Source: Leptonemataceae bacterium
Lineage (GTDB): Bacteria; Spirochaetota; Leptospiria; Leptospirales; Leptonemataceae
DNA: 64,000 nt
Direction of reading: 5' to 3'
Assembly (NCBI GenBank): GCA_965227295.1
Contig: OZ245742.1
Location: 1,280,001 to 1,344,000 of the forward strand
Each line of letters begins with the position of its first letter. Within the stretch, counting starts at the first letter, position 1. Made by a program: the position numbers and the translations under genes. The notes beneath the pieces were generated by a model that was not told the origin of the DNA, searched no databases, and saw nothing but the letters and a program-made list of their open reading frames with translations. Positions 18,450 through 37,550 of the stretch are shown here, piece by piece.

Positions 18450-19415
18450 CTATCTCCGGGACAGAATTTTCGCGATCCGATTGACGAGATATTGATCGAA
18501 GTCCGGGTGATTGGCGATTTCAAAGAGTTCGGCTCTGCCAGCGATATGCATTCTGAAGGATGCAAGGAACTCCTGCAAACTATCGGGCTTGCTACTGTTT
18601 ATATATCCGATAATACCGTTTATTGATTGTATTGCCTTGCGGGCTCGCTCCTCGGGGTAGAAATTATACACTATGCCTTCCAGGATCTCTTTCGGGTCCT
18701 GGCCGGTCGGCGGGATCGGCGACTCTTCGTAGGATCCAAATCTCCAGAAATAGACATCGTAATAGATGGATTCTATAATGTCGTGATCGGATGAAAACTC
18801 AGAATAATATCCAGGATCTAAGAACTCGCGATCTCTCTGGATATAGCACTGGGTCCCGGGCGAGCGAAAATTACCGATGATCCGTTTCGTCTTGTCCGCG
18901 ACAACGATCAATACCCCGGAAGGAAGTTCTCTGTAGAGCGCGATAACCGCGGCATGCAGCGAAATTCCGGCCTGTTTCTGAATCGTTTCCAATGCGGATC
19001 GCAGGTTTTCTTTTGCGAGACCCTGAATCCATTCCAGTGGCGCCAGCAATTCAGAAGCGAATCGATTTGCTTCCGCCTCCATAGCGTTATATATGTGCGC
19101 ATTGCCGATGTGGTTCCACGAATCGGTGTGGCAGCAAATCGTGCCGACGTGCCAGGGGATGAATAAGTGTCCGAGTTCGTGGGCTATTGTGAAGCGCTTT
19201 CGTGTTCTTGGAATGGTCGTATTGAGAATGATCTCCGGTTTCTCGTGACCCGTGTCTGCGCCGACTATGATCGCGTCGACATGGAAGGGAATAACGATCT
19301 CCTTGATCCTTGCGAAGCGGCGTGCGAAAGCAAAGATATCGACCGCTCGATTGTACTGGTATCTTTCCCGGACTCTCCTTGCGATAGCAAGTTCCGCCCG
19401 TAAATCAGTATCCAT
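18450..19415 (-). CDS. ImmA/IrrE family Zn metallo-endopeptidase (no N-terminal HTH)
   Basis: RKRFTIAHELGH (HExxH) and EAEANRFASELLAP. Confidence 0.88.
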   Translation of the reverse strand: MDTDLRAELAIARRVRERYQYNRAVDIFAFARRFARIKEIVIPFHVDAIIVGADTGHEKPEIILNTTIPRTRKRFTIAHELGHLFIPWHVGTICCHTDSWNHIGNAHIYNAMEAEANRFASELLAPLEWIQGLAKENLRSALETIQKQAGISLHAAVIALYRELPSGVLIVVADKTKRIIGNFRSPGTQCYIQRDREFLDPGYYSEFSSDHDIIESIYYDVYFWRFGSYEESPIPPTGQDPKEILEGIVYNFYPEERARKAIQSINGIIGYINSSKPDSLQEFLASFRMHIAGRAELFEIANHPDFDQYLVNRIAKILSRR

Positions 19416-19956: not shown

Positions 19957-20148
19957 AATAGACCAGAGTCCCCGGGGTACAAGCGTATTTTTTGACCCCT
20001 TGTACCATCACCGCGACATATTTTCTCAAAAAGTGACGGGCGGATGAATTGTACCAGTGCTTTTTTGAATTTTTCTCAAACTCCCGCGCCCCTCGTACCA
20101 CCATGGAAAAACAATTGCCGCAAAGCCCGCCCCGGGATTCCGGAGCAT

Positions 20149-22761
20149 ATGACCGCATTCCTGAAGGACTGGCCGTTCGATCGGCGCATGCGTCTGCTCG
20201 GCGCCTACTTCCTCATCTACGTTGCTCTGCTTACTGTAAACCGTCTCATCTTCACGCTCGCCTACGCGTATCGTCTGGAAGATGAGCCGTTCACGAACGT
20301 CCTGCTCGCCTTCGCCATCGGTCTGCGTTTCGACGGTTCCGCGGCGGCCACGCTCATCGCCCCGTTCTTTTTGCTGGCGAGTGTGAACTTCTTAAATCGC
20401 TTCGCCGTGTATCGTTCCGTATGGAGCTTCGGTCCCATCGTCGTGCTGGTGGGAGTCATCGCGCTTTGCGTCGCCGATCTCATCTACTACGAGAACGGCA
20501 ACAAACACATCGGCTACGAGGCCTTCGCCTTTCTCGGCGACATCGGCCTGCTGTTCGGTTCCGCGCTGAGCCAGGATCCGTTGCGTGTCGTCGGTGGATT
20601 GCTGGCGCTCGGCCTGGTCATCGGCGGTGCTGTCTATCTCTACGCGCGTTACGTTCGCACGGAGTACGTCCCCGAGCGCATCGGCAAGGGCATCGGCCGT
20701 TTCGTGGTGTTGACCCTGCTGCTGATCATCGCGTTTCGCTCCGGATTGCAGGAGCGCATCATGCGTGCCGGGGAAGCCATCATCTCGCAGAATGATTTTT
20801 TAAACAACGTCGGCCTCAATCCGGTGTTCACCACGGTGGCGGATCTACGCAGCTTCTCCGTACCGGACTATCAGACCATGCCTCTCGATGAGGCCGTTTA
20901 CCTCGTGCGCCGGGAACTGGATTACGAAGGGGCAAGCTTCGTAAGCGACGAGTATCCCTTGCTGCGCAAGACCGCAACGACGCGCAACGGTCGCCCGCCG
21001 AACATCGTGCTCATCCTCATGGAAAACTGGACCGGTAAGTTCATCAAACCCATCGGCGGCGGCATGGTGGACGGCAAAGAAGTGACTCCGCGTTTCAATC
21101 AACTGGCCAACGAAGGTGTCTTCTTTCGAAACTTTGTGGCCACCGGCGGGCGCACGACGAGCGGGTTATTGGCCACGCTGACGGGTATGCCGGAAAAACC
21201 GGGCCTCACTGTTTTTCGTACGCACCACGTCGTGGGTACCTTTCGCGGCCTGCCGGAAATTTTGCGCGAGCTGGGTTACCATACCCTCTTCGTAACCGGC
21301 GGTCCGCTGGAGTTTACGAACAAGATCAACATCCTGCCGCAGTGGGGATTCACGGAAGTCCTGGGTCGTCGTCACATGGCGAAGATGGGCGATTACGAGG
21401 CCGACGCCTGGGGTTACTACGATGAAGACATCTTTCGTGTGTTCCGGGATCGCCTGTCCGCCCTGCACGCCGAGAATCCCGATCGTCCTTTCTTTGCCGT
21501 GGCGGAGTCACTCACGACGCACTATCCCTACGAGTTGCCCCACGAACGCTTCGCCATCTTCGACGACAGCACGCGGGACTACGAATTCCTGAACGTCTAT
21601 CACTACTCCGACTGGGCCCTGGGCGAACTCATGGACCGCCTGCGCACGGAGCCGTACTTCGACGACACCCTCTTTGTAATTATGGCGGATCATACTCACC
21701 ACCGCTATCTCAATTATTACGAGGACCGGCAAATCCCCGCCCTGTTCTATCAACCGTCTCGCCTGCGTCCCGAGGTGCGGGAACAGATCGCCACCCAGAC
21801 CGATCTCATTCCCACGCTGTTGAGCATGGTCGGGAAAGAAACCTACTTCTCCGCCATGGGCCGGGATCTCTTCGCGCCGGACATCAGCGAGTCGGCGTAC
21901 TTCGTCCACGGAAACTACTTCGGCTGGATCGAGAAGGATATCTTCTATTATCAGCTAACGGACGCGCTCTTCGGCGTCGGCTACAAACCCGACGAAACCG
22001 ATTTCGAAAAACCGCCGTGCGTCAGCGAACGCGGCGACTGTGACGTCTATCAACGCAAGAGCCTCGCGTTTCTCAATGCGAGCAATCGTCTCATCGATGC
22101 CAATCGCGTGTATCCGCCGGCGACGACGGACGGCCCGGAGCCTGTCGCGGCGAAAGACCTGGAACGGACGGGGTGTCCGGTGCACTCCGGAATTCTGGAG
22201 CGGGACCTGGAAGCCCGGGCCCTGGCGTTCGAAGCAGTGCGGGAAGCGGCGCGCTCTCCCTGGATTCCGCGTGCCACCGTGATCAACCAAATGTTAACAT
22301 ACATTCCGCCGACGAAGTCTGCACGCCGGGAGACGGCGGCCGCGTACTACGACAGCCAGTACTTTAAAGATGCCCGCGCCCGGCGTCCGGTGCGACCGAC
22401 CCGGCGTGAAGAGCAGGGCGTGGGCGCGGAACAACGTTCCGACGTCGGCGTGCATCTTTTGAAAATGGCCCCGGACTATCGTAGCGCCGAAGTCATTATG
22501 CGCATTGAAACGATCATCGAGAATCCGGAGGCCCTGGCGCTTGTACGGGAACGGGAGCAGGCCATGCTGGAGCGCGCGGCCCAACGGAAGGCGGACGACG
22601 CATCCACGGATGACGGGAGCGAATCGGCAAAGACACCCATGGTCCACCAGGATGTGCGCATGGGTCTCTCCCGATGGAAGCGCCACGACTGTCGTTGGTA
22701 TCCGGACCTGCCGGTGGGCAAGAACACGCAGGCGGGCAAACCGTCCGGGCCGCGGCCTTAG
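20149..22761 (+). CDS. LTA synthase/sulfatase-family membrane protein with C-terminal extension
   Basis: N-terminal TMs with GLRFD, PNIVLILMENW, GGRT(T) nucleophile, TTHYPY, ADH; start trimmed to ATG 20149 (GGAG RBS). Confidence 0.85.
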   Translation: MTAFLKDWPFDRRMRLLGAYFLIYVALLTVNRLIFTLAYAYRLEDEPFTNVLLAFAIGLRFDGSAAATLIAPFFLLASVNFLNRFAVYRSVWSFGPIVVLVGVIALCVADLIYYENGNKHIGYEAFAFLGDIGLLFGSALSQDPLRVVGGLLALGLVIGGAVYLYARYVRTEYVPERIGKGIGRFVVLTLLLIIAFRSGLQERIMRAGEAIISQNDFLNNVGLNPVFTTVADLRSFSVPDYQTMPLDEAVYLVRRELDYEGASFVSDEYPLLRKTATTRNGRPPNIVLILMENWTGKFIKPIGGGMVDGKEVTPRFNQLANEGVFFRNFVATGGRTTSGLLATLTGMPEKPGLTVFRTHHVVGTFRGLPEILRELGYHTLFVTGGPLEFTNKINILPQWGFTEVLGRRHMAKMGDYEADAWGYYDEDIFRVFRDRLSALHAENPDRPFFAVAESLTTHYPYELPHERFAIFDDSTRDYEFLNVYHYSDWALGELMDRLRTEPYFDDTLFVIMADHTHHRYLNYYEDRQIPALFYQPSRLRPEVREQIATQTDLIPTLLSMVGKETYFSAMGRDLFAPDISESAYFVHGNYFGWIEKDIFYYQLTDALFGVGYKPDETDFEKPPCVSERGDCDVYQRKSLAFLNASNRLIDANRVYPPATTDGPEPVAAKDLERTGCPVHSGILERDLEARALAFEAVREAARSPWIPRATVINQMLTYIPPTKSARRETAAAYYDSQYFKDARARRPVRPTRREEQGVGAEQRSDVGVHLLKMAPDYRSAEVIMRIETIIENPEALALVREREQAMLERAAQRKADDASTDDGSESAKTPMVHQDVRMGLSRWKRHDCRWYPDLPVGKNTQAGKPSGPRP

Positions 22762-23745: not shown

Positions 23746-25452
23746 GTGCAATCGGATGGCAATGAAAAAAAACCGGCGCCGGATTCCCGCGTGAATCTGG
23801 CGCACACTGTATTGAGAGATGCGCTCGATGCAAAAGGTTTCGCCGAATTTACCGTTCGGGGCGAAAGCATGTATCCGTTGCTTCGTCCCGGGATGACGAT
23901 CCGCGTTGTTCGCTGTGCGGAGAAAGATCTGCGCGTGGGAGACATCATCATCTTCCGCAGCCGCGACGATCTTCTGGCACATCGAATCGTCGCAAAGCAT
24001 GGCTCCTCCCTCTGGATCGCAAAAGGGGATAATACCTTCATTTCGGACGACCCCGTCGCTTTCGAGGAGATCCTCGGCCGGGTCATCGCCGTCGCCGGGG
24101 AGGAGTACATCTACGGTTCTCGCGACGTGATGCTTGCGCGGCTCTCGCACCGTCAGGGTCGCATCGTTTCCGAACTGCGTTCTCGCAGCGAACGCCGACG
24201 ATCGTCGACCGGCCGGCGCGTGAAACGCGAGAACGTCCTGGCCTGGCCGCTGCGCCTGGCGTTGCGTCCGTATCTGTGGTTGGTGCGTCTCATCGCGGCC
24301 GGACATCCGAACCGCGACGGCGGGCGCCTGCCCATGGACGACACAGTCGACATACATCCGGGCACGCTGCAAATGGTTCGCCGTCGTGCCGCGGTCGCCG
24401 GCCGGCCCGCCACGGATTTGAGCTGGGTCGCCGTGGATCCGTTGATCGGTTTTCTGGGCGATGCGTTGCGAACTTCACCGCCGCGACCGGAACGCCTGGC
24501 GAAGTACATGCAGACCTGGAACGCCGCGGTGCGGGCGCTGCGTTGCCTGGCGGACGCAAACATTCAGACAATCATCTTTAAGGGCCTGGTCTTCGCGGAA
24601 GAACTCTACGACAGCCCGTTGCATCGTCCCATGCGTGATGTGGATTTGCTCGTGCGCCCGGACGACTTCGCGGCGGCGTGTCGCTGTTTGTCGGCCGCGG
24701 GTTTTATGATTCATGACGACTTTCCGGAGCGGCGCCCCCATGCGGTTTCGGACGCGGAAGTTTTCCCGGCGGATGCGTGGGCGCCGGGAGAGCTGACCTT
24801 CGTCGATGAGCGCGGAGTGGAGATCGATCTGCACTGGCATCTGATTCCGGAACACTGGCTACGCCCATGCCGTAACATACTTTTAGATGAAGTCTGGCGA
24901 GACGCTCGCCCCTTTCAATTCGAAGGCGGCAGTGTCTGGACCATGAGTGACGTACATACGGCCGCGTACCTGACGTTGAATCTGAGCCGCAACGCTTATC
25001 GTTCTTTATTCGCGTACCTGGATCTGGATCGATTGTGGCGCCGGCAGGGCCGTGACTTCGCGCAAGAGTTCTTCGATACGTGTCGGCGCTGGCGCATTCG
25101 CATCGCCGCGGATTATGCCCTTCGTTACTTGAAGTATTTGTGCGACACTCCGGTACAGATTTCGCGGCGACTGCGCCTGCGTCCGGGTCTGCCGCGGCCG
25201 GTTCGTCTCTTAAAAGATTCGCGACGCTGGCGCAGTGACGGTTACATGTACTTCGTGCAACTGGCGACACTGGACCGGCTGCGCGACGCCCTGGGCGTCA
25301 TCGTGCGGTTGGTTCTTCCTCCGCGCGGTTGGTTGCGACGACGCTACGGTGAGCGGGCTTCGTTCGTCCATCACTGGAGGCACGTCTTTCGTGCTTTGAC
25401 GGAACGGCGGACGAACTCAGGGAATGCGGACGGAACCGATGGGACTCGTTGA
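23746..25452 (+). CDS. Fusion: S24/S26-family peptidase + nucleotidyltransferase (NTP_transf_5-like)
   Basis: N-terminal VRGESMYPLL.PG...GDIIIF...HRIV...KGDN; C-terminal FKGL...LY..P..RPMRDVDLLV and IDLHW. Confidence 0.82.
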   Translation: MQSDGNEKKPAPDSRVNLAHTVLRDALDAKGFAEFTVRGESMYPLLRPGMTIRVVRCAEKDLRVGDIIIFRSRDDLLAHRIVAKHGSSLWIAKGDNTFISDDPVAFEEILGRVIAVAGEEYIYGSRDVMLARLSHRQGRIVSELRSRSERRRSSTGRRVKRENVLAWPLRLALRPYLWLVRLIAAGHPNRDGGRLPMDDTVDIHPGTLQMVRRRAAVAGRPATDLSWVAVDPLIGFLGDALRTSPPRPERLAKYMQTWNAAVRALRCLADANIQTIIFKGLVFAEELYDSPLHRPMRDVDLLVRPDDFAAACRCLSAAGFMIHDDFPERRPHAVSDAEVFPADAWAPGELTFVDERGVEIDLHWHLIPEHWLRPCRNILLDEVWRDARPFQFEGGSVWTMSDVHTAAYLTLNLSRNAYRSLFAYLDLDRLWRRQGRDFAQEFFDTCRRWRIRIAADYALRYLKYLCDTPVQISRRLRLRPGLPRPVRLLKDSRRWRSDGYMYFVQLATLDRLRDALGVIVRLVLPPRGWLRRRYGERASFVHHWRHVFRALTERRTNSGNADGTDGTR

Positions 25453-26759: not shown

Positions 26760-28967
26760 TCAAAACGGCCGCACGAAACCTTTCTCCCGCAGCCGGAACG
26801 GATCGAGCCGTTCCGCGTTCTTTTTATGATTCGTGACAGCGTCCGCCGACAGGCCGATCTCCGCGCCGATTTGCGCGAGGCGTGCGTGACAGTGCGCTGC
26901 CGTAACTTTCCAGGAACTACAGTTACGAAAAAGTTCCGCCGCCGCGTGTAAATCCTGTTCCGCGGCCGGACTTGCGACGGCAAGGTGGCGGGCCCGGAGC
27001 AAATGGCTTTCGCCGGCCAGGTTTTCCAGTTCGGCGTCCGCAGGATACAACGTGCGCGCCCACCGGAGCCACGGCAACGCCGAATCCACGGCGGCCGCAA
27101 CCGCCGCGGGGTCTCCGGAACTTTCGGGATTCCGGGGTTTGAGTACCCACACGAGCCAGGCGTTCTTATGTCGATACGGCTCCAGTGCCTCCAGTGCCTG
27201 CTCGCGCGCAAAGACCGCGAAGCCATGATACGTGACACCGACGCAGAGGATGAGTGCGGCCACGGCCGGCCAGGTATTTCGGGGCGCAGGCGACGGCATT
27301 GGATCCGCATCCTGTTTCGATGAAGGCAATGCCAGAAGGACGGCTAACGCTACGAGCACCATGGCCGCATAGAACGGCTGAATGAAATGATAGTTCATAA
27401 GACCCTGGAGCAGAAACGAAACGAGGGCCGTGCCCGCGGCGAGGGCCAGTGTGCCTGGCAGGCCCGGGACGAATAGACTGCGCCGGGCCGACTCGATCGC
27501 GTAGGCCGTGAGAAAGAGGATCAGAGCGGCGAAGGGGATGCCTGCATCGAGGCACAGTTGCAGGAGCAGGTTGTGTGCGTGCAGTCCGGCTCCCTGCATA
27601 CGGTAGTCGTGGGCAAGATGATAGAAGCCCGCGCCGCGGAGATCCGGTATCGGCATCGCGGCCAGCACGGAGTAGTGATTCGCGCCCGTGCCGAACAACG
27701 GTACTTCGGCGATTGCATTCAGGGCCAGTGTCCATAAAGCGAATCGCTGGCGTAATGTCGTAAACAAAAAGAAGTCCGGGTCCGTGCTGCGATCTTTCAT
27801 GAACCACAACCAGACCACAACGCCGGCCATCAGCGCGAGAACGCCCGCACCCACGAAAACGATGCGCCGATGGGAACGGGCGGAATCCGGCTTAGATTCT
27901 TCTGAGTGTAATCTTACAAATGCGAGGGCGAACAGAAAAACCGCGATCGCCATTCCGCTGAGGTACGCGAAGCGCGCGGCCGTTGTTATGAGTAAAAAGC
28001 CCAGAACCGGGACGATCCCCAGGGCGACGCCCATGCCGATCCGGTGCGCAAACTTTTCGGTTTGCGGGCCGTGCTTCGAAAAGAGTGATCGCAAGATTGC
28101 CGGCACGGCAACGAGCAGGGGCAGCAGGAAAACCAGCCAGCCGCCGGCATCGTTGGAGTTGACGCCGCCCAGGCTGTCCTTCTTGGCAAAGAAAAGATCC
28201 ATTGTTGGAACGCTGCGAAAGAGATGCTGTGCGCCGACTGCGAGCCAGCCCAGGTTCAGCAAGCATACACCGATCCACACCAGCGCCGTGCCTGCCGCAT
28301 CTTCCCGGGCGCGGGCGTACGTAAATAAGAAGAGAAAGACGAGCACAATGCTCAGACCGACGGCCGGTATGCTCTGGTAGTAGTTGGGCGCTACCAGGCC
28401 GGCGATGACAAACCACAGCCAGGCCGAGCCCCCGGCAATCAAGAAGACCGGATGCCGCCGCCGCAAACTTTGTAGAACCTTTTGAAGATCGTCGGCGTAC
28501 TCTACGCCGAGGTACGCCGCGGCACAGACCAGCGGCAGGATGCCGCCGGGGTTCCAAACGTAGACCCACAAGAACGGAAACGATAAGAACCAGAGCAACG
28601 TCGCCAGAGCGACCATCCGCGGCGGAACCCCGCGCCAGATCGCGATTAACATTAGAAAAAAGTAAGCGTAGAACCAGAACCGGTGATAGAACCGCAGGCC
28701 CGTTATGCCGGTATCGATGTAAATCGACGCGGCCCGGACCGCCGTGACAAAAACCAACAGTGCGCCAAGACATGCGATAGCGGCGAATGCGTCTCGTCTG
28801 TTTTGATGAGATTGTTCGCCACCGAAGTAGCGTGCACCTGCCAGAGAGACGAGCAAGATCCCCAGGGTAGGCCACAGGAGTTCTCGTACAAAAGTGTACT
28901 GAACGCCCGCGGACAGGCCGCTGCAGAGCAACACGGCCAGAATCAATATCCGAAGGGCCCACATCAT
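26760..28967 (-). CDS. O-antigen ligase (Wzy_C)-like polytopic membrane protein
   Basis: Many TM helices; R..LW..AL..I...PLFGTG and HAHNLLLQL..DAG motifs; helical C-terminal tail. Confidence 0.78.
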   Translation of the reverse strand: MMWALRILILAVLLCSGLSAGVQYTFVRELLWPTLGILLVSLAGARYFGGEQSHQNRRDAFAAIACLGALLVFVTAVRAASIYIDTGITGLRFYHRFWFYAYFFLMLIAIWRGVPPRMVALATLLWFLSFPFLWVYVWNPGGILPLVCAAAYLGVEYADDLQKVLQSLRRRHPVFLIAGGSAWLWFVIAGLVAPNYYQSIPAVGLSIVLVFLFLFTYARAREDAAGTALVWIGVCLLNLGWLAVGAQHLFRSVPTMDLFFAKKDSLGGVNSNDAGGWLVFLLPLLVAVPAILRSLFSKHGPQTEKFAHRIGMGVALGIVPVLGFLLITTAARFAYLSGMAIAVFLFALAFVRLHSEESKPDSARSHRRIVFVGAGVLALMAGVVVWLWFMKDRSTDPDFFLFTTLRQRFALWTLALNAIAEVPLFGTGANHYSVLAAMPIPDLRGAGFYHLAHDYRMQGAGLHAHNLLLQLCLDAGIPFAALILFLTAYAIESARRSLFVPGLPGTLALAAGTALVSFLLQGLMNYHFIQPFYAAMVLVALAVLLALPSSKQDADPMPSPAPRNTWPAVAALILCVGVTYHGFAVFAREQALEALEPYRHKNAWLVWVLKPRNPESSGDPAAVAAAVDSALPWLRWARTLYPADAELENLAGESHLLRARHLAVASPAAEQDLHAAAELFRNCSSWKVTAAHCHARLAQIGAEIGLSADAVTNHKKNAERLDPFRLREKGFVRPF

Positions 28968-29031
28968 AAAAAAAACATAGTGATTTAATCAAACGGTGTG
29001 CGTAAATATGATTTATAGTTGACGTTCACTC

Positions 29032-29391
29032 ATGGCCGGTGTCACTTTCGCACTCATGACTGAAACACAGAATCGCCCTCCGGAAAGTCAGGGCATCGCC
29101 ATTACTGAGGAGACTCGATTTCAAGCGCACGAAGATCTTTCGTGGCGTGAAATCGAAGGACAAATGGTTTGCATGAACCTGAAGTCCGGCGAGTACTTTA
29201 CGTTCAACGGAGTCGGCCGGGAAATCTGGCAGGCTGTTGCGGACGAGCGCGGTAATACGCGGGACATCGTCGCGAAGATTGTAAGTGAGTATGCGGTCGA
29301 AGAAAGTGTTGCGCAAAAGGATAGTAAAGAATTCTTAAGAAACTTGCTGGAAGCCGGTTTGATTCGGCCTGTGGATAGTCAACAAAATTGA
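29032..29391 (+). CDS. PqqD family protein / RiPP recognition element (RRE)
   Basis: WREIEGQMV..NLKSGEYFTFNGVGREIW...IV.EYAVEE..A.KD..EFL..L.EAGLI, classic PqqD pattern; alternative start ATG 29056. Confidence 0.92.
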   Translation: MAGVTFALMTETQNRPPESQGIAITEETRFQAHEDLSWREIEGQMVCMNLKSGEYFTFNGVGREIWQAVADERGNTRDIVAKIVSEYAVEESVAQKDSKEFLRNLLEAGLIRPVDSQQN

Positions 29392-29432
29392 TGAATCGTT
29401 CATCGACGACAGTTTAACTTTCGAGGGTAACT

Positions 29433-29585
29433 ATGAAAAACGAAAAGAAAAAGTATGAGTCGCCGTCACTGGAAAGCCGGAATGGCGGTAAAGACTACGC
29501 CGCTCCGACGTTCGAGCGCCACAATCCGCTCAACGAAGTGTCGGCAACCTACTACTATACGTACTACTACTATTACTACTACTGA
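29433..29585 (+). CDS. Putative RiPP precursor peptide with poly-Tyr core (50 aa)
   Basis: Translated by hand: MKNEKKKYESPSLESRNGGKDYAAPTFERHNPLNEVSATYYYTYYYYYYY*; GAGGG RBS at 29423-29427; lies between PqqD and kinase; YxxPxL motif; below ORF-track length cutoff. Confidence 0.85.
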   Translation: MKNEKKKYESPSLESRNGGKDYAAPTFERHNPLNEVSATYYYTYYYYYYY

Positions 29586-29594
29586 GAGAAAGCG

Positions 29595-30680
29595 GTGATC
29601 GGGTTACCGGGGCTTCCCATCGAAGTAGCCGGCCCGCCTTCTCCGGTGCGGGATGCAGTCGAAGCGGCTTTCGGCTTCTGCGCATTTCGAAATAGTAGCG
29701 ATACAAATCACATACGGCTGGAGGTTCGTTTTCTCGATAGCGAGTCCGAATCTCTGGCGGCCCGGGTTCCGGGATTCCTGAGCGCCCGCGTGGCGCTTCT
29801 GGAGCAGGAGCCTTCGCCCGTGTCCTCCGGTCTGGCTTACGTCAGTGAAGGGGGCAGCCGGCAGGGTTCCGGAACCGTCCTTGCAGATCCGCATTCCATA
29901 TGCGCGGCCTGGAGCGACTCCGCAGAGTCGCTGTCCTTATACGTCCGCAAGCGACGGCCAGAACCGGGCCTTTTGCCGTCCGTGCAAGCCCTGCTGATCC
30001 CCCTGCTGCGCGACCTTCTCCTTCGAAGAGATGCCTGTCTCCTTCATGCAGGCTCGGTCCGCACGCGGAACGATGAGGGATTGCTGGTCCTCGGAGATAA
30101 TGGAGCTGGAAAGACTACGGCCGTTCTGGCGCTGGCCCGGGCGGGAGGAGCCTTGCTTGCCGACGATCTGAACGTTTTGCGCAGGGCCGAGAGCGATGCT
30201 CGCCCATCGTTTGAAATCTGCGCGGTCCCGGAAGCGATCAATCTGACCGAGGACGAGAACACGGCGCGCTTTTTTCCGGAGCTGGCCGGTAGTCTGGGGC
30301 GAGCCCGGCCGGAGAACGATCGGCCGAAGGTAGCGGTTGCGCCCGATGAAGTCCTGCAACGACTCGGGGCGACGTCACGAACGGATCGTTGCTTCGCGAA
30401 CGGAGTTTTGATTCTGGATATCACGCCGGAGACTCCGTCCGCGTCGGAACGATTCGAAAGACTGCCGGCAGCACAGGTGTTGCCGTTGCTCCTGCGGGCC
30501 AACGTCTTCGCCGGTGGACAATCACCGGGAGCGGCCTTCGCAAATCTCGCGGAGTTTGTGGAAACCGTTCCGGGATACCGTGTGCGCACGGGGCCCGACC
30601 CGGCTGAAATGGCCCGGGAGATCTTGAACTACTTTGGGCATACACACGTAGCCGGGAGCATTCCCGGAGGGAGAGCATAA
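29595..30680 (+). CDS. HPr kinase-related (HprK-like) P-loop kinase
   Basis: LLHAGSV...LVLGDNGAGKTT...LLADD motif set. Confidence 0.8.
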   Translation: MIGLPGLPIEVAGPPSPVRDAVEAAFGFCAFRNSSDTNHIRLEVRFLDSESESLAARVPGFLSARVALLEQEPSPVSSGLAYVSEGGSRQGSGTVLADPHSICAAWSDSAESLSLYVRKRRPEPGLLPSVQALLIPLLRDLLLRRDACLLHAGSVRTRNDEGLLVLGDNGAGKTTAVLALARAGGALLADDLNVLRRAESDARPSFEICAVPEAINLTEDENTARFFPELAGSLGRARPENDRPKVAVAPDEVLQRLGATSRTDRCFANGVLILDITPETPSASERFERLPAAQVLPLLLRANVFAGGQSPGAAFANLAEFVETVPGYRVRTGPDPAEMAREILNYFGHTHVAGSIPGGRA

Positions 30681-32144
30681 ATGAACGCAAGCGCGGAGAA
30701 CACAGCACAGTCCTGGCCGCAAATGGAAGCCCTGCAGCGTCTCATGCGAGTCAGATCGCTGTTGCAAGACGGGCTGTCTTCGCTACCGGCCCTGATCGAC
30801 ATCCTGGCCGGCGACGATCCCACCGCGGCGGCCGAGGCGCACCAGGGTTTGATGGGCATGCTCCCGCTGGCATCCCTCTATGAACGGCGGCCCGAGGATT
30901 TTGTCGTCGCGGATGCGGACGAAATTCGCGCACCGATCCCGGATTGGCTGAAGGCGTCGTGTGATGGATGGGGGACCACGGAAGACTTCGCCTCTTTATG
31001 CGTGGAGCGTCTTGCGGAATTCCGCACCGGAGCACCGGAGCGTGCTCGCGTATTGCTGGAGCGCCTGGTAAACTTCTGGGGTATTCGGCGCCGGCTGGCC
31101 GAACTGCTCGAGGCGCGCGGTTTGAGCGATCTGCGCCGGACGTACGAAGAACTCATCGTCGAGACGGATGACATTCATTTTCCCGAGCAGATCTGCCTTT
31201 CGCCGACCCAGGCCTGTCAGCTCAAATGTTCGTTTTGTTACTCCGCGGATCTTCCTAATGTACACAAAGATGATATTAGCGACTCGAAGACACTTGAGCT
31301 GCTCGACTGGATGCATTCTAAGAACATTAAGCGTCTGAGTTTCGCCGGCGGCGAGCCCACATTGTTCCGCTACTTTCCGGCGCTCATTCGCAAAGCCGCC
31401 GAATACAAAATGGAAATCTTTCTTACGACGAACGGCCTCATGGCGCCGGCCGTCGTAGACGCGCTCATCGAAGTTCGACCGTTGTGCATCACCATGCATC
31501 TTACCGAAGAGGTTCTGGACGCACCGAAGCTCCTGGCACTCTTCGAACGCAACGCTCGGTCTTTCCTTGACCAGGGCATCTATACGATCATCCGGGCGAA
31601 CTTCATGGAGCCGGAGCAGGACCTGGAGCGCTACTTTCACACGGCGGAGAAACTGGGCATCAAAGAGATTCGTTGCGCCGTGCCCGTTCCCTCCGAACAA
31701 AGCGGTCACGATTACGTGCGCGAAGAGGACATGGACGCCATGGGGCGTTATCTCGGGGACTTCGTCGCCGGCGGGGCCCGGCGCGGTATCAAAACGGTAC
31801 TCAGTAAACCCTTTCCGGTCTGCAAACTTCCGGAGCACGCGGCGAAGGCCTTCCTGGCCAACGGCTCTCTCGGCGTGAATTGTCCGGTCCATCTTACGGA
31901 CTACTCGCACAACATCATGCTGTATCCGGACGGGAGTTTTTCGCCCTGCCTCGCTTTGAATATGAAGAGCGGCACGACCATCTACGATTATGACGGTGTC
32001 CGGGAGGCGGCCCAGGAGTACCGGTCGCGCATTGAGGACATGACCGAACAACCTATGTTTCCCGATCATTGTCCGAAGTGCCCGCTGTGGCAGGGCGCGC
32101 GCTGCGTGGGAGGATGTCTCGGCTATCGCGTCGCCGATTCCTGA
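30681..32144 (+). CDS. Radical SAM/SPASM-domain peptide maturase
   Basis: CQLKCSFC (CxxxCxxC), FAGGEPTL, TTNG; C-terminal NC...DGSFSPC...CPKC.....RCVGGC SPASM-type cysteines. Confidence 0.9.
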   Translation: MNASAENTAQSWPQMEALQRLMRVRSLLQDGLSSLPALIDILAGDDPTAAAEAHQGLMGMLPLASLYERRPEDFVVADADEIRAPIPDWLKASCDGWGTTEDFASLCVERLAEFRTGAPERARVLLERLVNFWGIRRRLAELLEARGLSDLRRTYEELIVETDDIHFPEQICLSPTQACQLKCSFCYSADLPNVHKDDISDSKTLELLDWMHSKNIKRLSFAGGEPTLFRYFPALIRKAAEYKMEIFLTTNGLMAPAVVDALIEVRPLCITMHLTEEVLDAPKLLALFERNARSFLDQGIYTIIRANFMEPEQDLERYFHTAEKLGIKEIRCAVPVPSEQSGHDYVREEDMDAMGRYLGDFVAGGARRGIKTVLSKPFPVCKLPEHAAKAFLANGSLGVNCPVHLTDYSHNIMLYPDGSFSPCLALNMKSGTTIYDYDGVREAAQEYRSRIEDMTEQPMFPDHCPKCPLWQGARCVGGCLGYRVADS

Positions 32145-32151
32145 TATCAGC

Positions 32152-33903
32152 ATGGCATCTTCCGATCCCCGGACAGGCGCCCGGATCGACCCGGCGGCGC
32201 GACGCGGTTTTGCGGCCTTTCTTGCGGCGTACCTGCGTCCGTTTCGTAAGCTTGCGCTCATCGTAACTTTCACATCGGTGCCGTTGTTCGGGCTGGCTTT
32301 TGTGATTCCGGTCTCCTTTAAGAACGCGACGGATTTTTTCCGACAGGCGGACGCGCTGTACTCCGTGGCCTTCTGGATGGCCGTGGGGTTGGGCGCGCTC
32401 GTGCTTAAGGCAATCTTCGACGTTATTAACGCCTACGGCCTTACCGTTCTGCACGCGAGCCTGGCCCGGGACATCCGCGCCGATCTCTACGCGCGTTTAC
32501 AGGCGGCCTCGTTCGACGTACACATTCGCAGTCGCAGCGGGGAGGTGGCGAACCTGTTGAGCAACGACGTGCAGCACGCCGCCATGGGTGCGTTACAAAT
32601 CTACTTCACGGCGTTTTATTATCCGCTGTTGATCGCGGTGCTTTCGGCTGTGATGTTGTACTTCAGCCCGCAGTTGTTTTTGCTGTCGCTGCTTTCGTTT
32701 CCTATCATCAGCCTGGCTGTTTCGTTCACCGCGCGGCGAGCGCATCATGCCGAGCGGCAGTTTCTCGATCGTCACGCGCGGGTGATGGGCATGTTGATCG
32801 AATCCCTCGTGAACGTGAAGCAGATCAAGGCCCTGGGTATCGAAGATCGCGGCCGGGCGAACCTCCGGGCCGTCGACGAAGAACTCCTGGGCTATCGCAA
32901 ACGCGCGCAGTTCATGGAAAGCCTCGCCGGGCCCATCACCGAAGTAACGAACGGTGTCATGCTCACGCTCATGGTCCTCGTGGCGTACTATCTTGTTGCA
33001 AACAATCAGGCCGACTACGGCGAAATCATCGGTTGCCTGGTGGCCGCGGTGCAACTGCGCGCACCGGTGCGCGCTTTCGCCGTGCAATGGATGGACATGC
33101 AAAAATCCCGCGCGGCCGTGCGACGCATTGAATGGATCGTGGGAGTACCGGCCGAAGGCGGGCAAAGCGACGCAGCGGAGTCGGAGCCCATGCAGGTAAA
33201 CTCGGTACAATTCGAGAACGTCTCGTTCTCGTACGACGGGAAACACGAAATTCTGCGCGGCCTCGATTTTACATTACGCCGCGGCGAACGTGTGGCCGTG
33301 CGCGGTCCGAGCGGCAGCGGCAAGACGACGTTCGTGGATCTGCTGGTGGGATTCTATCCACCGGCCGCGGGACGCATCCTCGTAAACAATCAGAATCTAT
33401 CGGCGTTGCGGCCGGATCACTGGCGGCGCAACATCGGCATTGTAACCCAGGAGCCCTTGTTGTTCGAAGGCAGCATCGAGGAAAACGTACGCATCGCCGA
33501 TCCCGACGCGGAGTCGGAACGCATCGAACGCGCCATGCACCTGGCCGGCATGTCGGCTATGCTTGCGGCCTTGCCGGAGGGCGGCGCGACCCAGGTCGGC
33601 GAGCGCGGCAAACGACTCTCCGGAGGTGAACGCAAACGTGTAGCCCTGGCGCGTGCCCTGGTGCGGCCGATCTCGCTGCTCGTTCTCGATGAGGCTACCA
33701 GCGAACTCGACGCCGACATCGAAGAGAGCATTCTGGAATCCATCGACCAACTCGCCGCCGATCTTCTGATCGTACACGTTTCACATCGCGACGCAATCCT
33801 CCGGCATTGTGATCGCGTGCTGGACTTCAAGCCGGGGGCGCCGGTTTGCGAAGTCCCATTGTCGGAAATACAGCCGCGCCCGCGCCGGGAGGTGCTCACG
33901 TGA
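32152..33903 (+). CDS. ABC exporter (fused TMD-NBD), no C39 peptidase domain
   Basis: TM domain then GPSGSGKTT, LSGGERKR, LVLDEATS, VSHR. Confidence 0.92.
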   Translation: MASSDPRTGARIDPAARRGFAAFLAAYLRPFRKLALIVTFTSVPLFGLAFVIPVSFKNATDFFRQADALYSVAFWMAVGLGALVLKAIFDVINAYGLTVLHASLARDIRADLYARLQAASFDVHIRSRSGEVANLLSNDVQHAAMGALQIYFTAFYYPLLIAVLSAVMLYFSPQLFLLSLLSFPIISLAVSFTARRAHHAERQFLDRHARVMGMLIESLVNVKQIKALGIEDRGRANLRAVDEELLGYRKRAQFMESLAGPITEVTNGVMLTLMVLVAYYLVANNQADYGEIIGCLVAAVQLRAPVRAFAVQWMDMQKSRAAVRRIEWIVGVPAEGGQSDAAESEPMQVNSVQFENVSFSYDGKHEILRGLDFTLRRGERVAVRGPSGSGKTTFVDLLVGFYPPAAGRILVNNQNLSALRPDHWRRNIGIVTQEPLLFEGSIEENVRIADPDAESERIERAMHLAGMSAMLAALPEGGATQVGERGKRLSGGERKRVALARALVRPISLLVLDEATSELDADIEESILESIDQLAADLLIVHVSHRDAILRHCDRVLDFKPGAPVCEVPLSEIQPRPRREVLT

Positions 33904-36047
33904 ATACCGTAGTAGAACCCTTAGATCGTACTTATCTTGAGTTAAGCGCCGAACCGCAGGCCTGGCCGCGTTCCCGGGAGGACGGCCGCACGCGGTTGTT
34001 GTTGCTTGCGCTCAACGTGCCGGGTTACTATTCTCTGCCCGTGCGTTTGCTGGCCCTGCAAACCGAGAACGACGCCGAACTGCGTGCGCGCTACGACGTG
34101 CGTTACTTCGAGGCCTTCCTCGACAATTCCATCGAAGATCACCTCGCCCTCCTGGAGGCCTGGCAGCCGGATCTGCTTGCCTGTTCGGTGAACATCTGGA
34201 ATCGCGACGCGTTGTTGGATCTGTGCGGTCGGTATCGTGTATCGAATCCGAATGTTCGTGTGATCGGCGGCGGGCAGGAGGTCTCGAACTCGTGTTACAA
34301 TTTCCTCGAAAGCCATGTGGAGTTCGACTACATCGTGGACGGCGAGGGTGAAATTCCCTTCCGCGAATTTTTGAACGAGTGGGAGCCGGGAGAACTCCGG
34401 CTGCGGAATCCCGCGGCGGTCTCGGGCCTGCACTACCGAAACGGAAGTGAGGTCGCCTTTACGTGTCCCGGTCGGACCATCGACGACCTGGATGAGATCG
34501 TTTCGACGAACCTGGCGAGTCTGGCCCCGGTGGGTGACGACAAACTGAAGATGGGTGTACTCTTAGAAGGAACCCGGGCCTGTCCGTTTCGCTGCGCGTT
34601 CTGTTTCGAGGGCGACAAACGAACGAAAACGCGCTTTTCCAGCACGGAACGCTTAACAGAAGAAGCGATGCACTTAATGGATCTGGGCGTAAAAAAGTTC
34701 CACATGCTGGATCCCATCATTTGCGCCAGCCGTCCGGAGCGGCTGGAGGGAATCGCCCGTCTTTTTGATCGCATCCAGAGCCGCGACCCGGAGGCCTTCA
34801 TATTCGTGGAAGCCTACGCCGATCTCATTACGCCGGAGGTGGCGGACTGTTTGCGAGTGTGCTCGGTCCTGGACCTGGGCTTGCAATCCGTCAATCCGCT
34901 GACCACGAAATCCATCCGCCGGCCGTTCAAGCGTGACCGGTGGCTGAACGGCGTCGAACTCTTGCGCGAACGCGGGATTCCGTTCAACGTGTACCTCATC
35001 TCCGGTTTGCCGCACGAAACCTTCGATACGTTCCTCGACGGAATTCAGTTCGTGCTGCACGAGAATCCCACGCGCATTTTTTTCAATGAGCTGTGTCTCT
35101 TGAACGGAACCGAACTGCGAATGCGCGCCGATGAATTCGGCTACGACTACGATCCCGCGCCCCCGTACTTTGTTTTCGGTAACACCTGGATGCCGCGCCC
35201 GGTGTTGCGCATGGCGCAGACGCTTTCTAAAATCGTCGAGCGCAATCACAACTACTCCGGCCCCGTTCTTTTTCCGTATCTGCCCTGGGTTTCCGAGGCG
35301 CCGCGTACCGAAACGCGCGAAGTCCTCGTGGATGCGGAACGAGCGCTGCATGACGGTGCTTATTTTCAGGAATGCGAAAACGACATTCGCGCCGGCGGCA
35401 CCGATGTGCACATCGATTGCGGTCTTGCTTTCGATTCTGCGCGTTTCGACGACTTACTGAACCTGTGCGGTCGTCTGCAATTCGCCGGAGCCGTACGCAT
35501 GAACCTGCGGGCCGCTCCGAATCTACTTACGGACATCGAAAAACTGACGGCGCTGATGAATCGTCTCGTGCTGCACTTTCGCATTCTCTACGACGCTTCC
35601 GGGCACGAAGCCGCGGACCTGCGTGCGGCCGTGGACGCTCTGGATCGCGAGTATCGACTCATGCGCGGGACGCACGCGCGACCGAACGTCGAAATTATTC
35701 TGATGCGTCCGCCGGTGGAGCGTTTGCCGGAGTTGATCCGAGATTGCGCGCGGCGGGTGTATTTGATTTCCATTTACGATCCGGACCAGGACGGCGAGAC
35801 CGGCGGCCTGGATGCAAATACGGCGCGGCAACTTTTTGAAGATGCCATGCAACGACAGGCCTGGCTGCGTCTGCCGCGCAAACACATGCGAGAAGTTCTG
35901 GTGGCGCTCGGACGCGAACTCGACGGCGAGCATGGTCTGGAAGATCGAGCCGATGCGATTACGGAAAAGCTCGCCGTTCTGGGCTTTGCCGGGAATCCGG
36001 TGGAGCAACGTTCGAATGTATCCGGAGCACCCGTTGCAAAGATTTAG
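33900..36047 (+). CDS. B12-binding domain radical SAM enzyme
   Basis: SVNIWN, IGGGQEVS, DGEGE, RACPFRCAFC, GLQS, GLPHET; GTG 33900 overlaps ABC stop (GTGA) with GGAGG RBS. Confidence 0.88.
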   Translation: MNTVVEPLDRTYLELSAEPQAWPRSREDGRTRLLLLALNVPGYYSLPVRLLALQTENDAELRARYDVRYFEAFLDNSIEDHLALLEAWQPDLLACSVNIWNRDALLDLCGRYRVSNPNVRVIGGGQEVSNSCYNFLESHVEFDYIVDGEGEIPFREFLNEWEPGELRLRNPAAVSGLHYRNGSEVAFTCPGRTIDDLDEIVSTNLASLAPVGDDKLKMGVLLEGTRACPFRCAFCFEGDKRTKTRFSSTERLTEEAMHLMDLGVKKFHMLDPIICASRPERLEGIARLFDRIQSRDPEAFIFVEAYADLITPEVADCLRVCSVLDLGLQSVNPLTTKSIRRPFKRDRWLNGVELLRERGIPFNVYLISGLPHETFDTFLDGIQFVLHENPTRIFFNELCLLNGTELRMRADEFGYDYDPAPPYFVFGNTWMPRPVLRMAQTLSKIVERNHNYSGPVLFPYLPWVSEAPRTETREVLVDAERALHDGAYFQECENDIRAGGTDVHIDCGLAFDSARFDDLLNLCGRLQFAGAVRMNLRAAPNLLTDIEKLTALMNRLVLHFRILYDASGHEAADLRAAVDALDREYRLMRGTHARPNVEIILMRPPVERLPELIRDCARRVYLISIYDPDQDGETGGLDANTARQLFEDAMQRQAWLRLPRKHMREVLVALGRELDGEHGLEDRADAITEKLAVLGFAGNPVEQRSNVSGAPVAKI

Positions 36048-36059
36048 AAGGTACTGTTC

Positions 36060-37550
36060 ATGAAAGCTACGTTTCTCGGCCATCAGGGGTGGATGCTGGA
36101 ATCCTCCGACGCGCGCTTGTTGATCGATCCGATCATCACTCCGTACTATCGCAACTCCGCGTATACGAAGATGTGGATGTATCCGCCGCGGGAGATCGAT
36201 CTCGCCGCGATGGGTTCGGTGGACGCGATCTATCTTTCGCATGAACACGAGGATCACTTTCACATCGAGTCGCTGCACCTCTTCAGTCGCGACACGAAGT
36301 TGTACGTGAGCGGTAACATTTCCGGTGCGGCCGTGCGCATTCTCGAAGAGATGGGCTTTCTCGTGCGCCGGCTCTACGCCCTGGAGCAGGTGGAGATCGG
36401 CGAGCACATGACTATGACCGTTTACCCGCCGCCGGCATCGCCCACGGAGCACTGGGTCCTCCAGCCGTTCGTTCTGGAAGATGAGGACTATCGCCGTTCG
36501 TTCTTCAATCCCGTGGACTGCCAGATCTCGGATCAGTTCATCGCCATGCTCGACAAAGAGCGCGTCGCTGAACTCGGACTGGTTTGTGTCGCGAACAATA
36601 CGCAGAACATTCCCGCGCTGGTGCATCCGAATCAATATCTTCCGGGGCGGCGCCGCACGGCCATGAACCTGCGCCCCGCCAACGTCCTGCACAGTCACCT
36701 GGAACTCGGCAACCTTCCGTTCATGCGAGAGATCGCCATCGTCGGTTGCGGATTTATTTCCGAAGACAATCCCTTCGGTCTTTATCTGAATCAGTCCCAG
36801 GCCGAACTCGGCGCGGTAATGGAAAAGTACAGCGTGGGCGCCGTCCGTATTTTCGGACCGCAGCCGGGAGAAGCGGTGGACCTTCGCGGCGACGGCGCAA
36901 CGCGCATTCCGGCACCGCAGGACGGTTTTGTGCGACCGTCGACGGAAGGCGAAGCAGTCCTGGCCTGGGCCGAACAAACCAACTACGTTCCTGATCCTTT
37001 CACGTACGAGTACGATCCGGTCTCGACGAAACTCCTGCACGCGGAAGAACAGGAGCGTCTCGGCGCCGCGCTGGATGCTTTCGCCATACGCATGGCCGGC
37101 CATCGTTTTCAAATCGAGATGACTCAGTCCAACCTGGACGATCACGGCAATCCGGTCGGGGCGGGGCGTCTGTTGTTGATCTTGATGTACGAAGATGGGA
37201 ACGGTGAACGGCGCAAGCTCTACTATGAGTATCGCCCTGCTGATACACGCTTCTACGCGCTGGAGAAACAGGGCATTACGGAATTCGATCTCGCCCATCG
37301 TTACCCCTTCGGTTACGAATGCTGGGCGAAGGATCTGCTCGGATTGCTCGAAGGCGATGTTACCGTGTATGAGATCATCAACTTCAGGAACCGCTTCTGG
37401 CATCCGCAGCGACACATGGTGGAACGCGCGCACTTCCCGCTCGTGTTAAACGATTTGTTTGCGCCGGAGTGCATACCGGAGCTGACATATCAGATCTATC
37501 GCCGTGCGTACGACCGGGCGCGCGCGTCATCGGAAGCGCGTCCGGTTTAA
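36060..37550 (+). CDS. Metallo-beta-lactamase-fold enzyme
   Basis: TFLGHQG...LLIDP, SHEHEDHFH (HxHxDH); last gene of the rSAM operon. Confidence 0.82.
   Translation: MKATFLGHQGWMLESSDARLLIDPIITPYYRNSAYTKMWMYPPREIDLAAMGSVDAIYLSHEHEDHFHIESLHLFSRDTKLYVSGNISGAAVRILEEMGFLVRRLYALEQVEIGEHMTMTVYPPPASPTEHWVLQPFVLEDEDYRRSFFNPVDCQISDQFIAMLDKERVAELGLVCVANNTQNIPALVHPNQYLPGRRRTAMNLRPANVLHSHLELGNLPFMREIAIVGCGFISEDNPFGLYLNQSQAELGAVMEKYSVGAVRIFGPQPGEAVDLRGDGATRIPAPQDGFVRPSTEGEAVLAWAEQTNYVPDPFTYEYDPVSTKLLHAEEQERLGAALDAFAIRMAGHRFQIEMTQSNLDDHGNPVGAGRLLLILMYEDGNGERRKLYYEYRPADTRFYALEKQGITEFDLAHRYPFGYECWAKDLLGLLEGDVTVYEIINFRNRFWHPQRHMVERAHFPLVLNDLFAPECIPELTYQIYRRAYDRARASSEARPV

Follow-up and report, generated by a model that had tools for sequence, protein, structure and literature searches.

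The window analysed here, a stretch of 64,000 nucleotides from the genome of a Leptonemataceae bacterium (contig OZ245742.1), carries on its plus strand a tightly packed row of genes that encode, in order, a PqqD-family protein, a 50-residue peptide, an HprK-like kinase, a radical S-adenosylmethionine (SAM) enzyme referred to here as rSAM1, an ABC exporter, a B12-binding radical SAM enzyme (B12-rSAM) and a hydrolase of the metallo-β-lactamase (MBL) fold. This report concerns the peptide, which ends in a run of tyrosines. An inspection of the DNA alone (the original prediction) had proposed that an open reading frame (ORF) between the PqqD and kinase genes, preceded by a GAGGG ribosome-binding site, encodes the precursor of a ribosomally produced peptide that is modified post-translationally (RiPP). 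Re-reading of the coordinates and the translation bore this placement out. The precursor gene (50 codons plus stop) occupies 29433-29585 on the plus strand, as supported by its translation and by the family alignments A2, A5 and A6; its ATG lies at 29433, its TGA at 29583-29585, and its product is MKNEKKKYESPSLESRNGGKDYAAPTFERHNPLNEVSATYYYTYYYYYYY. The PqqD gene (29032-29391, +) precedes it, and the HprK-like gene (29595-30680, +) begins 9 nucleotides past its stop. The Shine-Dalgarno sequence GAGGG is found at 29423-29427 (+), 5 nucleotides upstream of the ATG.

The peptide ends as predicted, in that Tyr accounts for 10 of its 11 C-terminal residues. The core, T39-YYY-T-YYYYYYY (29547-29582, +), is read from the codons ACC TAC TAC TAT ACG TAC TAC TAC TAT TAC TAC TAC, with TGA after them; that is, eight TAC and two TAT codons are interrupted by one ACG. 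In a six-frame translation of the whole genome (5,938,550 bases, 59.8% GC), the window tract is the sole run of at least five Tyr, the 11 remaining Tyr runs each being of length 4, and the pattern (TAY)n, with n of at least 5, likewise matches this tract alone on both strands. The tract is thus a one-off in the genome, and therefore not one among many microsatellites. Between 16 and 42 kb of the window the GC content resembles that of the whole genome, with no sign of an island. A scan for promoters and terminators from 28700 to 30000 gave nothing beyond what was obtained with shuffled sequences; one terminator-like site (at 28782) was found, versus 1.3 expected.

The original prediction had also pointed to a Y-x-x-P-x-L leader motif of the kind recognized by PqqD-like proteins. 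Unusually, the window peptide carries two leader motifs, Y8-E-S-P-S-L (Y8-L13; 29454-29471, +) and Y22-A-A-P-T-F, and both are also present in L057 and L058, the loci of two related genomes described below (alignment A6). The first is conserved in the window lineage only and is missing from members of the family with short leaders. The motif shared by the whole family is the second one, which in the window reads K20-D-Y22-A-A-P25-T-F27-E-R-H30. The family-wide motif is K20-x-Y22-x-x-P25-x-F27-x-x-H30 (29490-29522, +), rather than the exact Y-x-x-P-x-L; we presume this to be the site seen by the RiPP recognition element (RRE). In an alignment of 21 sequences, there is no variation at K20, Y22 or P25, and H30 is kept in at least 90%, and the leader of the family can be summarized as K-x-Y-x-x-P-x-F-x-x-H-x-P-L-E-S-V.

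Related short ORFs were found at 25 further loci, namely eight anchored by rSAM1, 15 located with a DNA pattern and two in genomes of the same taxonomic family. Among 5.8 billion proteins, rSAM1 has nine homologues at 34-41% identity, and no orthologue was detected in 40 related genomes, where the best match has 24% identity. Scans with an alignment of the rSAM1 homologues (A1) returned four relevant genome loci and 11 metagenome loci. Eight of these 15 loci contain an ORF with a Tyr run upstream of the radical SAM gene, e.g., MKKEYEAPMFVKHDPLESVAAVTYYYYYY, and the remaining seven contigs are cut off within the kinase or radical SAM gene or shortly upstream of it; that is, homologous clusters do carry the corresponding ORF. 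A DNA pattern derived from the invariant columns, K-x-Y-x-x-P-x4-H-x10-YYYY, was then scanned over 185,579 species genomes and matched 25 stretches. Nineteen of these encode family peptides, four on contigs already known and 15 new; the other six were rejected as chance matches, with internal stops or no stop past the tract. Homologues of the kinase were found among the related genomes in G016 and G021 only, and the two same-family genomes traced in this way hold window-like peptides (L057 and L058) that are near-copies of the one studied here. Besides the window's own lineage, the sources of the family are metagenome-assembled genomes (MAGs) labelled Desulfobacterales, Desulfobulbaceae, Geobacter, Smithella, Syntrophobacteraceae, Nitrospirota and Cloacimonadota.

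A profile built from 21 peptides (A5), when searched against 1.84 billion protein representatives with a cut-off of E 0.001, gave 43 matches at or below that value, 40 of them no longer than 60 residues. A run of at least three Tyr is present in 39 of these 40 short representatives, and YYYY in 34 of 40. The distance from the motif Tyr to the start of the Tyr run is 18 or 19 residues in 38 of 39 representatives, and in 33 of 39 the C-terminal end lies 0-3 residues beyond the run, whose greatest length ranges from 3 to 9 among the representatives and reaches 12 in L036, a Geobacter MAG. The C-termini themselves vary, and a few members end in Ser (e.g., L025, P0016 and P0017). Three long matches, P0033, P0034 and P0056, were set aside as not being family peptides, in the case of P0033 and P0056 after inspection of their sequences. 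P0033 (382 residues) contains about five tandem copies of K-K-P-Y-x-x-P-x-L-x-D-H-G that match the leader part of the profile (four stretches, E 5.7e-7), and ten stretches of P0034 (1000 residues) match the same part. The leader-like motif therefore occurs also as a repeat in big proteins.

The pattern of variation within the family speaks to the nature of the tract. The peptides of L016 and L030 differ by 10 synonymous versus one non-synonymous codon change over 30 codons, and those of L015 and L024 by five synonymous versus none over 29 codons. Tract length changes in frame only, from 3 to 12 Tyr, and TAC/TAT swaps are synonymous. In L058, the sequence T-YYY-T-YYYYYY is repeated in different codons, its tract opening with ACA TAT TAC TAT ACT where the window has ACC TAC TAC TAT ACG; the interrupting Thr is therefore conserved and not a slip. 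These comparisons, together with the mixed codons of the window tract, uphold the earlier argument for selection at the protein level over slippage. In addition, most family members have an AGGAGG-type site (a match of 5-6 nucleotides) ahead of the start codon. At L014 the peptide (L014:31-138, …KKEYEAPIFIKHDPLESVAAVTYYYYYY) has no in-frame ATG, GTG or TTG, and an ATG in another frame lies just upstream of a G/A homopolymer; either an assembly indel or a lost start may account for this. Taken together, the codon comparisons and alignments demonstrate, at the level of sequence, that the ORF is a real gene under purifying selection.

The company kept by the peptide is similarly conserved. Genes for a PqqD protein, an HprK-like kinase and an NTP_transf_5 protein lie beside the peptide wherever the contig reaches. 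The PqqD gene is present in 13 of the 15 new loci found with the pattern, the other two being without room for it. The kinase recurs throughout, sometimes doubled or fused to NTP_transf_5, and the NTP_transf_5 gene recurs throughout those related loci that extend far enough. Orthologues of B12-rSAM (34-49% identity) are found in most loci, as is rSAM2, a second, shorter SPASM-like radical SAM enzyme of about 330 residues; rSAM1 is found in about half, and an ABC exporter follows rSAM1 or the kinase in many. A gene resembling the lasso-peptide B2 protease, with a Transglut_core3 domain, precedes the PqqD gene in L013, L015, L020, L024, L025, L034, L036, L042/L055, L047, L051 and L053, and a homologue of asparagine (Asn) synthase is encoded in L015, L024, L025, L034 and L036; neither is present in L016 and L030, both of them full 17-kb loci. 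Extras at some loci include a Kdo/WaaP-like kinase, which is missing from the window cluster, a formyltransferase and, in L055, a GT9 glycosyltransferase. L055 (8925-15093 of G041:C28) represents a sub-family with the tail YYYY[LVI][FW], in which the peptide gene lies upstream of the B2-PqqD genes; its cluster comprises the formyltransferase, a 669-residue HprK fusion, rSAM2, the GT9 heptosyltransferase-like protein and NTP_transf_5, and no B12-rSAM orthologue was found in its genome, G041. This recurrence across loci demonstrates a genetic linkage of the peptide to the lasso-B1-like PqqD, the HprK-fold kinase and NTP_transf_5, as read from gene order; a SPASM-type and/or B12 radical SAM enzyme and an exporter are nearly always alongside as well.

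The enzymes of the window were assigned from sequence profiles and structural models. The PqqD protein, an RRE-type peptide chaperone resembling lasso B1, matches PF05402 with E 1.5e-16; its best NCBIfam match is lasso_PqqD_Bac (50.1 bits, under the cut-off of 80), and the GeoRSP, WgkC and ScmD models match too. The P-loop kinase matches Hpr_kinase_C weakly (E 0.0013), and a search of its sequence against the Protein Data Bank (PDB) gave marginal HprK matches (E 0.28); the assignment is aided by the fold, since the model (predicted local distance difference test, pLDDT, 77.4) has HprK/P (1kkl, E 4.9e-7) as its best PDB match and also resembles phosphoenolpyruvate carboxykinase. Residues H151, K173, D190 and D191 are invariant in seven homologues. 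Its best NCBIfam match, HprK-related kinase A (TIGR04352), gives 23.4 bits versus a cut-off of 200, i.e., the kinase is not a member of that family. In the TIGR04352 system the kinase is paired with a PqqD-family protein and a nucleotidyltransferase, and we know of no precursor for that system.

rSAM1 (30681-32144, +; about 490 residues; PF04055, E 4.5e-13) has a SPASM-like C-terminal domain, although the Pfam SPASM model itself finds no match in it. C179-x3-C183-x2-C186 and seven further Cys are invariant. The model (pLDDT 83.5) shows residues 1-166 as a helical extension, and the best PDB folds are the peptide-modifying SPASM/twitch enzymes SuiB, SkfB, ChlB, CteB, anSME and TigE. The best structural matches, the streptide enzyme SuiB together with SkfB, CteB and ChlB (5v1s, E 7.2e-12; TM-score about 0.47-0.53), have the CxxxCxxC motif and the Cys-rich C-terminal domain in common with rSAM1; they differ from it in that identity is 13-18% and in that the all-helical N-terminal extension of about 166 residues replaces their built-in RRE. 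With this motif, this Cys-rich domain and the predicted fold, rSAM1 has the features of a SPASM/twitch RiPP maturase. The ABC exporter (32152-33903, +; PF00664 and PF00005) has a fused transmembrane and nucleotide-binding domain and is without a peptidase domain. B12-rSAM (33846-36047, +; PF02310 and PF04055) is a presumed C-methyltransferase, with NCBIfam matches to KedN5-family and RiPP C-methyltransferase models that are all below the cut-offs. From the TTG listed as its start, the gene shares 58 nucleotides (33846-33903) with the end of the exporter gene, and homologues align from about residue 27-30; the true start is probably further downstream.

Last in the row, the MBL-fold hydrolase (36060-37550, +; 496 residues; PF13483, E 2.5e-8) is a lineage-specific member, and its nearest Atlas clusters are MBL-fold hydrolases. 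A homologue with 45% identity adjoins the PqqD and rSAM2 genes in the same-family genome G021 (L002). There, a second, small operon, MBL hydrolase-PqqD-rSAM2 (G021:C183), lies on another contig than the poly-Tyr peptide of G021, and in that genome the system may be divided between two loci. Upstream of the row in the window, a gene at 23746-25452 (+) encodes a signal-peptidase/S24-like N-terminal domain (PF00717, E 8.6e-5) fused to NTP_transf_5 (PF14907, E 3.1e-35); the protein scores 47.5 bits with sigpep_I_arch versus a cut-off of 51.85. The sole PF14907 gene and the sole PqqD gene of the genome lie 3.6 kb apart in the window, and the fusion protein is probably a member of the cluster, with a possible role as leader peptidase. 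Between them, on the minus strand and divergent from the PqqD gene, is a gene for an O-antigen-ligase-like membrane protein of the Wzy_C type (26760-28967; PF04932, E 1.9e-11). A homologous fragment (31% identity over 122 residues, E 1e-6) is likewise divergent upstream of PqqD in L058 (162-509, -). This protein is an uncertain member of the cluster and may be involved in the system. A methyltransferase gene also lies upstream on the minus strand.

Two long ORFs run antisense to the row, at 30996-32273 (-; 425 residues) and 35523-37433 (-; 636 residues), opposite the Pfam-matched radical SAM and MBL genes; both are probably artefacts of high GC content. Further upstream of the cluster are an IrrE/M78 peptidase-like gene (18450-19415, -) and a gene for a 905-residue protein with a sulfatase domain (20044-22761, +), and no link of either to the cluster was seen.

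Several features of this system recall known lasso-peptide clusters. The clusters of paeninodin (PadeK/ThcoK) and pseudomycoidin (PsmK/PsmN) are described as likewise combining a split B1 (PqqD)/B2 pair, a Y-x-x-P-x-L/F leader motif and an ABC exporter with a kinase and an enzyme annotated as nucleotidyltransferase. Lasso-tailoring kinases are reported to place phosphate on the hydroxyl of the C-terminal Ser while the precursor still bears its leader, ahead of B2 and C, and to add up to four phosphates (PMC9266682). A His-Lys-Asp-Asp set is conserved in these kinases, and H151, K173, D190 and D191 of the window kinase may correspond to it. PsmN, annotated as a nucleotidyltransferase, is described as placing a hexose on the phospho-Ser of pseudomycoidin (PMC9266682; PMC6993621). 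Homology of the tailoring pair of the window with PadeK/ThcoK/PsmK and with PsmN is, by this analogy, a lead. In contrast to lasso clusters, the window has neither a cyclase nor B2, its core is a Tyr run without a guaranteed acceptor Asp or Glu, there is no conserved C-terminal Ser, and SPASM and B12 radical SAM enzymes are added.

Based on these results, it is probable in our view that the 50-residue ORF encodes the precursor of an RRE-dependent RiPP and belongs to a conserved, hitherto undescribed family. A short ORF beside a PqqD gene, a conserved leader and core, and co-conservation with tailoring enzymes across taxa are what one would look for in such a precursor, and all are found in the sequences compared; in agreement with the original prediction, we infer that the peptide is the substrate of the flanking maturases. 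The following sequence of events can be envisaged. The PqqD protein would bind the K-x-Y-x-x-P-x-F...H leader and offer the C-terminal Tyr run to the enzymes. The HprK-like kinase would phosphorylate a hydroxyl on the leader-bearing precursor, like the lasso-tailoring kinases, and the NTP_transf_5 enzyme would attach a further group at the phosphorylated hydroxyl; these two, the sole enzymes that recur throughout, are proposed as decorators of the core hydroxyls. The SPASM radical SAM enzyme would form C-C or C-O cross-links inside the Tyr run, B12-rSAM would C-methylate, and the ABC transporter would export the product. In most relatives, the leader would be cut by the B2-like protease; in the window, the signal-peptidase-like domain on the nucleotidyltransferase, or the MBL hydrolase, may serve instead. 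In its fullest form, this proposal amounts to a new RiPP class that has taken over the leader machinery of lasso systems (B1, either with B2 or lacking it) but forms no lasso. In such a class, the Tyr run, set at a fixed distance from the leader motif, would be a multi-hydroxyl scaffold that is phosphorylated, nucleotidylated or glycosylated and cross-linked or methylated, to be exported as a rigid, anionic, polyphenolic peptide to which no known product corresponds. To this fuller picture we give about an even chance of being correct.

A number of observations weigh against this interpretation. rSAM1 is missing from the peptide loci L034, L036, L047, L051, L053 and L055; therefore, no radical enzyme is universal. 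Conversely, rSAM2 is missing in the window, where the search returned rSAM1 only, at 22% identity. The genome of the window, which is 93.55% complete, has no PF13471 match that would indicate a B2-like protease. Lasso-tailoring kinases target a C-terminal Ser, and the window peptide ends in Tyr. All cluster enzymes are far under every curated NCBIfam cut-off, and their chemistry is therefore assigned by analogy. Finally, binding of the peptide by the PqqD protein, as anticipated in the original prediction, is weakly supported by a model of the complex, which is a weak pass only. The model, built on custom alignments (A3 for PqqD and A2 for the peptide), scores 0.53 versus 0.02 for the best control, with contact agreement between runs of at least 76% and a partner pLDDT of at least 52. 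Of 80 solved complexes, 58 attained the mark, and so did 2 of 110 mismatched pairs, counts that apply only roughly to custom alignments; among passing scores of 0.60 or less were seven of the 80 solved complexes and both of the passing mismatches. The pass may also reflect memory of the model, if a similar RRE-leader complex has been solved.

It is conceivable that the product is instead a genuine lasso peptide whose leader is very short and is cut off right after P-x-F, with the new N-terminus joined to a mostly conserved Glu or Asp 7-8 residues on (E35 in the window) and the poly-Tyr segment as a bulky tail. The lasso-B1-like character of PqqD, the B2-like proteases that flank its gene in many relatives and the Asn-synthase homologues of five loci would fit this structure, and an acidic residue is indeed found 7-9 positions after P-x-F in 35 of 39 representatives. 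A kinase and a nucleotidyltransferase are, moreover, known lasso tailoring genes according to PMC9266682 and PMC6993621. Nevertheless, the window genome lacks B2, and the window is free of Asn-synthase homologues, with the closest about 167 kb from the cluster. Four of the 39 representatives, and also L013, are without an acidic residue at 7-9, and the Tyr core is without Asp and Glu. In L015, the Asn synthase scores 400.6 bits with the model for glutamine-hydrolysing asparagine synthase (cut-off 267) and 232 with that for the lasso cyclase (cut-off 525), and L016 and L030 are complete loci without B2 or Asn synthase. The leader motif would, furthermore, directly adjoin the cut site, which is not known from lasso leaders, and a small residue would be missing at position 1. 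We therefore regard a lasso structure as distinctly unlikely; judging from its genes, the window product is not a canonical lasso peptide, although a lasso topology may exist in the subset with Asn synthase. Nearly as improbable, in our estimate, is that the peptide gives rise to an intracellular redox cofactor, like pyrroloquinoline quinone (PQQ; PqqA/D/E) or mycofactocin (MftA/B/C), rather than to an exported product. Those pathways likewise start from a small precursor with a critical Tyr and use a PqqD-type chaperone and a radical SAM enzyme with auxiliary clusters, so that the Tyr-terminated peptide, the PqqD protein and the SPASM-like radical SAM enzyme make a matching trio; the named loci also count in favour, coming from MAGs with labels such as Desulfobacterales, Nitrospirota, Geobacter and Smithella. 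The window, however, scores far under the cut-offs of those families: the mycofactocin radical SAM model gives 23.7 bits versus a cut-off of 265, and no PQQ- or mycofactocin-specific model was matched at membership level among the cluster genes scanned. In addition, the window and many of the loci encode an ABC exporter. To our knowledge, the PQQ and mycofactocin pathways have no counterpart of the kinase and the nucleotidyltransferase, which counts against a cofactor, nor of the Tyr run, B12-rSAM or the exporter.

The remaining two explanations dispense with a modified peptide. Attenuator leaders, as in the his and phe operons, have a run of a single codon type ending a tiny ORF upstream of an operon, and the Tyr codons could in that way sense charged tRNA-Tyr. 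The 9 nucleotides from the stop to the next gene contain no terminator-like site, though, and the genes downstream are not Tyr-biosynthetic. An attenuator would need neither the protein-level conservation of the N-terminal motif nor its fixed spacing, and the ORF is tied to the PqqD gene; a regulatory role is accordingly very improbable. The short length and low-complexity tail of the ORF would suit a chance reading frame over a TAC microsatellite. Given that the tract is unique in the genome and its codons are mixed, and that homologues from several phyla vary in length in frame and show a surplus of synonymous changes, the probability of such an accident is close to negligible.

The preferred reading, i.e., an RRE-dependent RiPP whose Tyr-run core is tailored by radical SAM enzymes, would describe a combination of core and enzymes that, as far as checked in NCBIfam, Pfam and the full-text literature, is unprecedented. 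The peptide has no Pfam or NCBIfam match and no name in any source. The earlier statement that no RiPP class with a poly-Tyr core is known holds up, in that none was found in the full-text literature, outside of which fell survey supplements and subscription journals; in the same literature, no description was found of a cluster combining HprK, PqqD and a radical SAM enzyme. Chemistry is what defines a RiPP class, and a near-pure Tyr core resembles none that we found described. The family is small but widespread, and its many natural variants, which span 3 to 12 Tyr and differ in their enzyme sets, lend themselves to assigning the roles of the enzymes. With an HprK-fold kinase and NTP_transf_5, an uncharacterised family, linked to a defined candidate substrate, the functions of both families become directly testable, and new radical SAM chemistry on tyrosine may emerge from this family.

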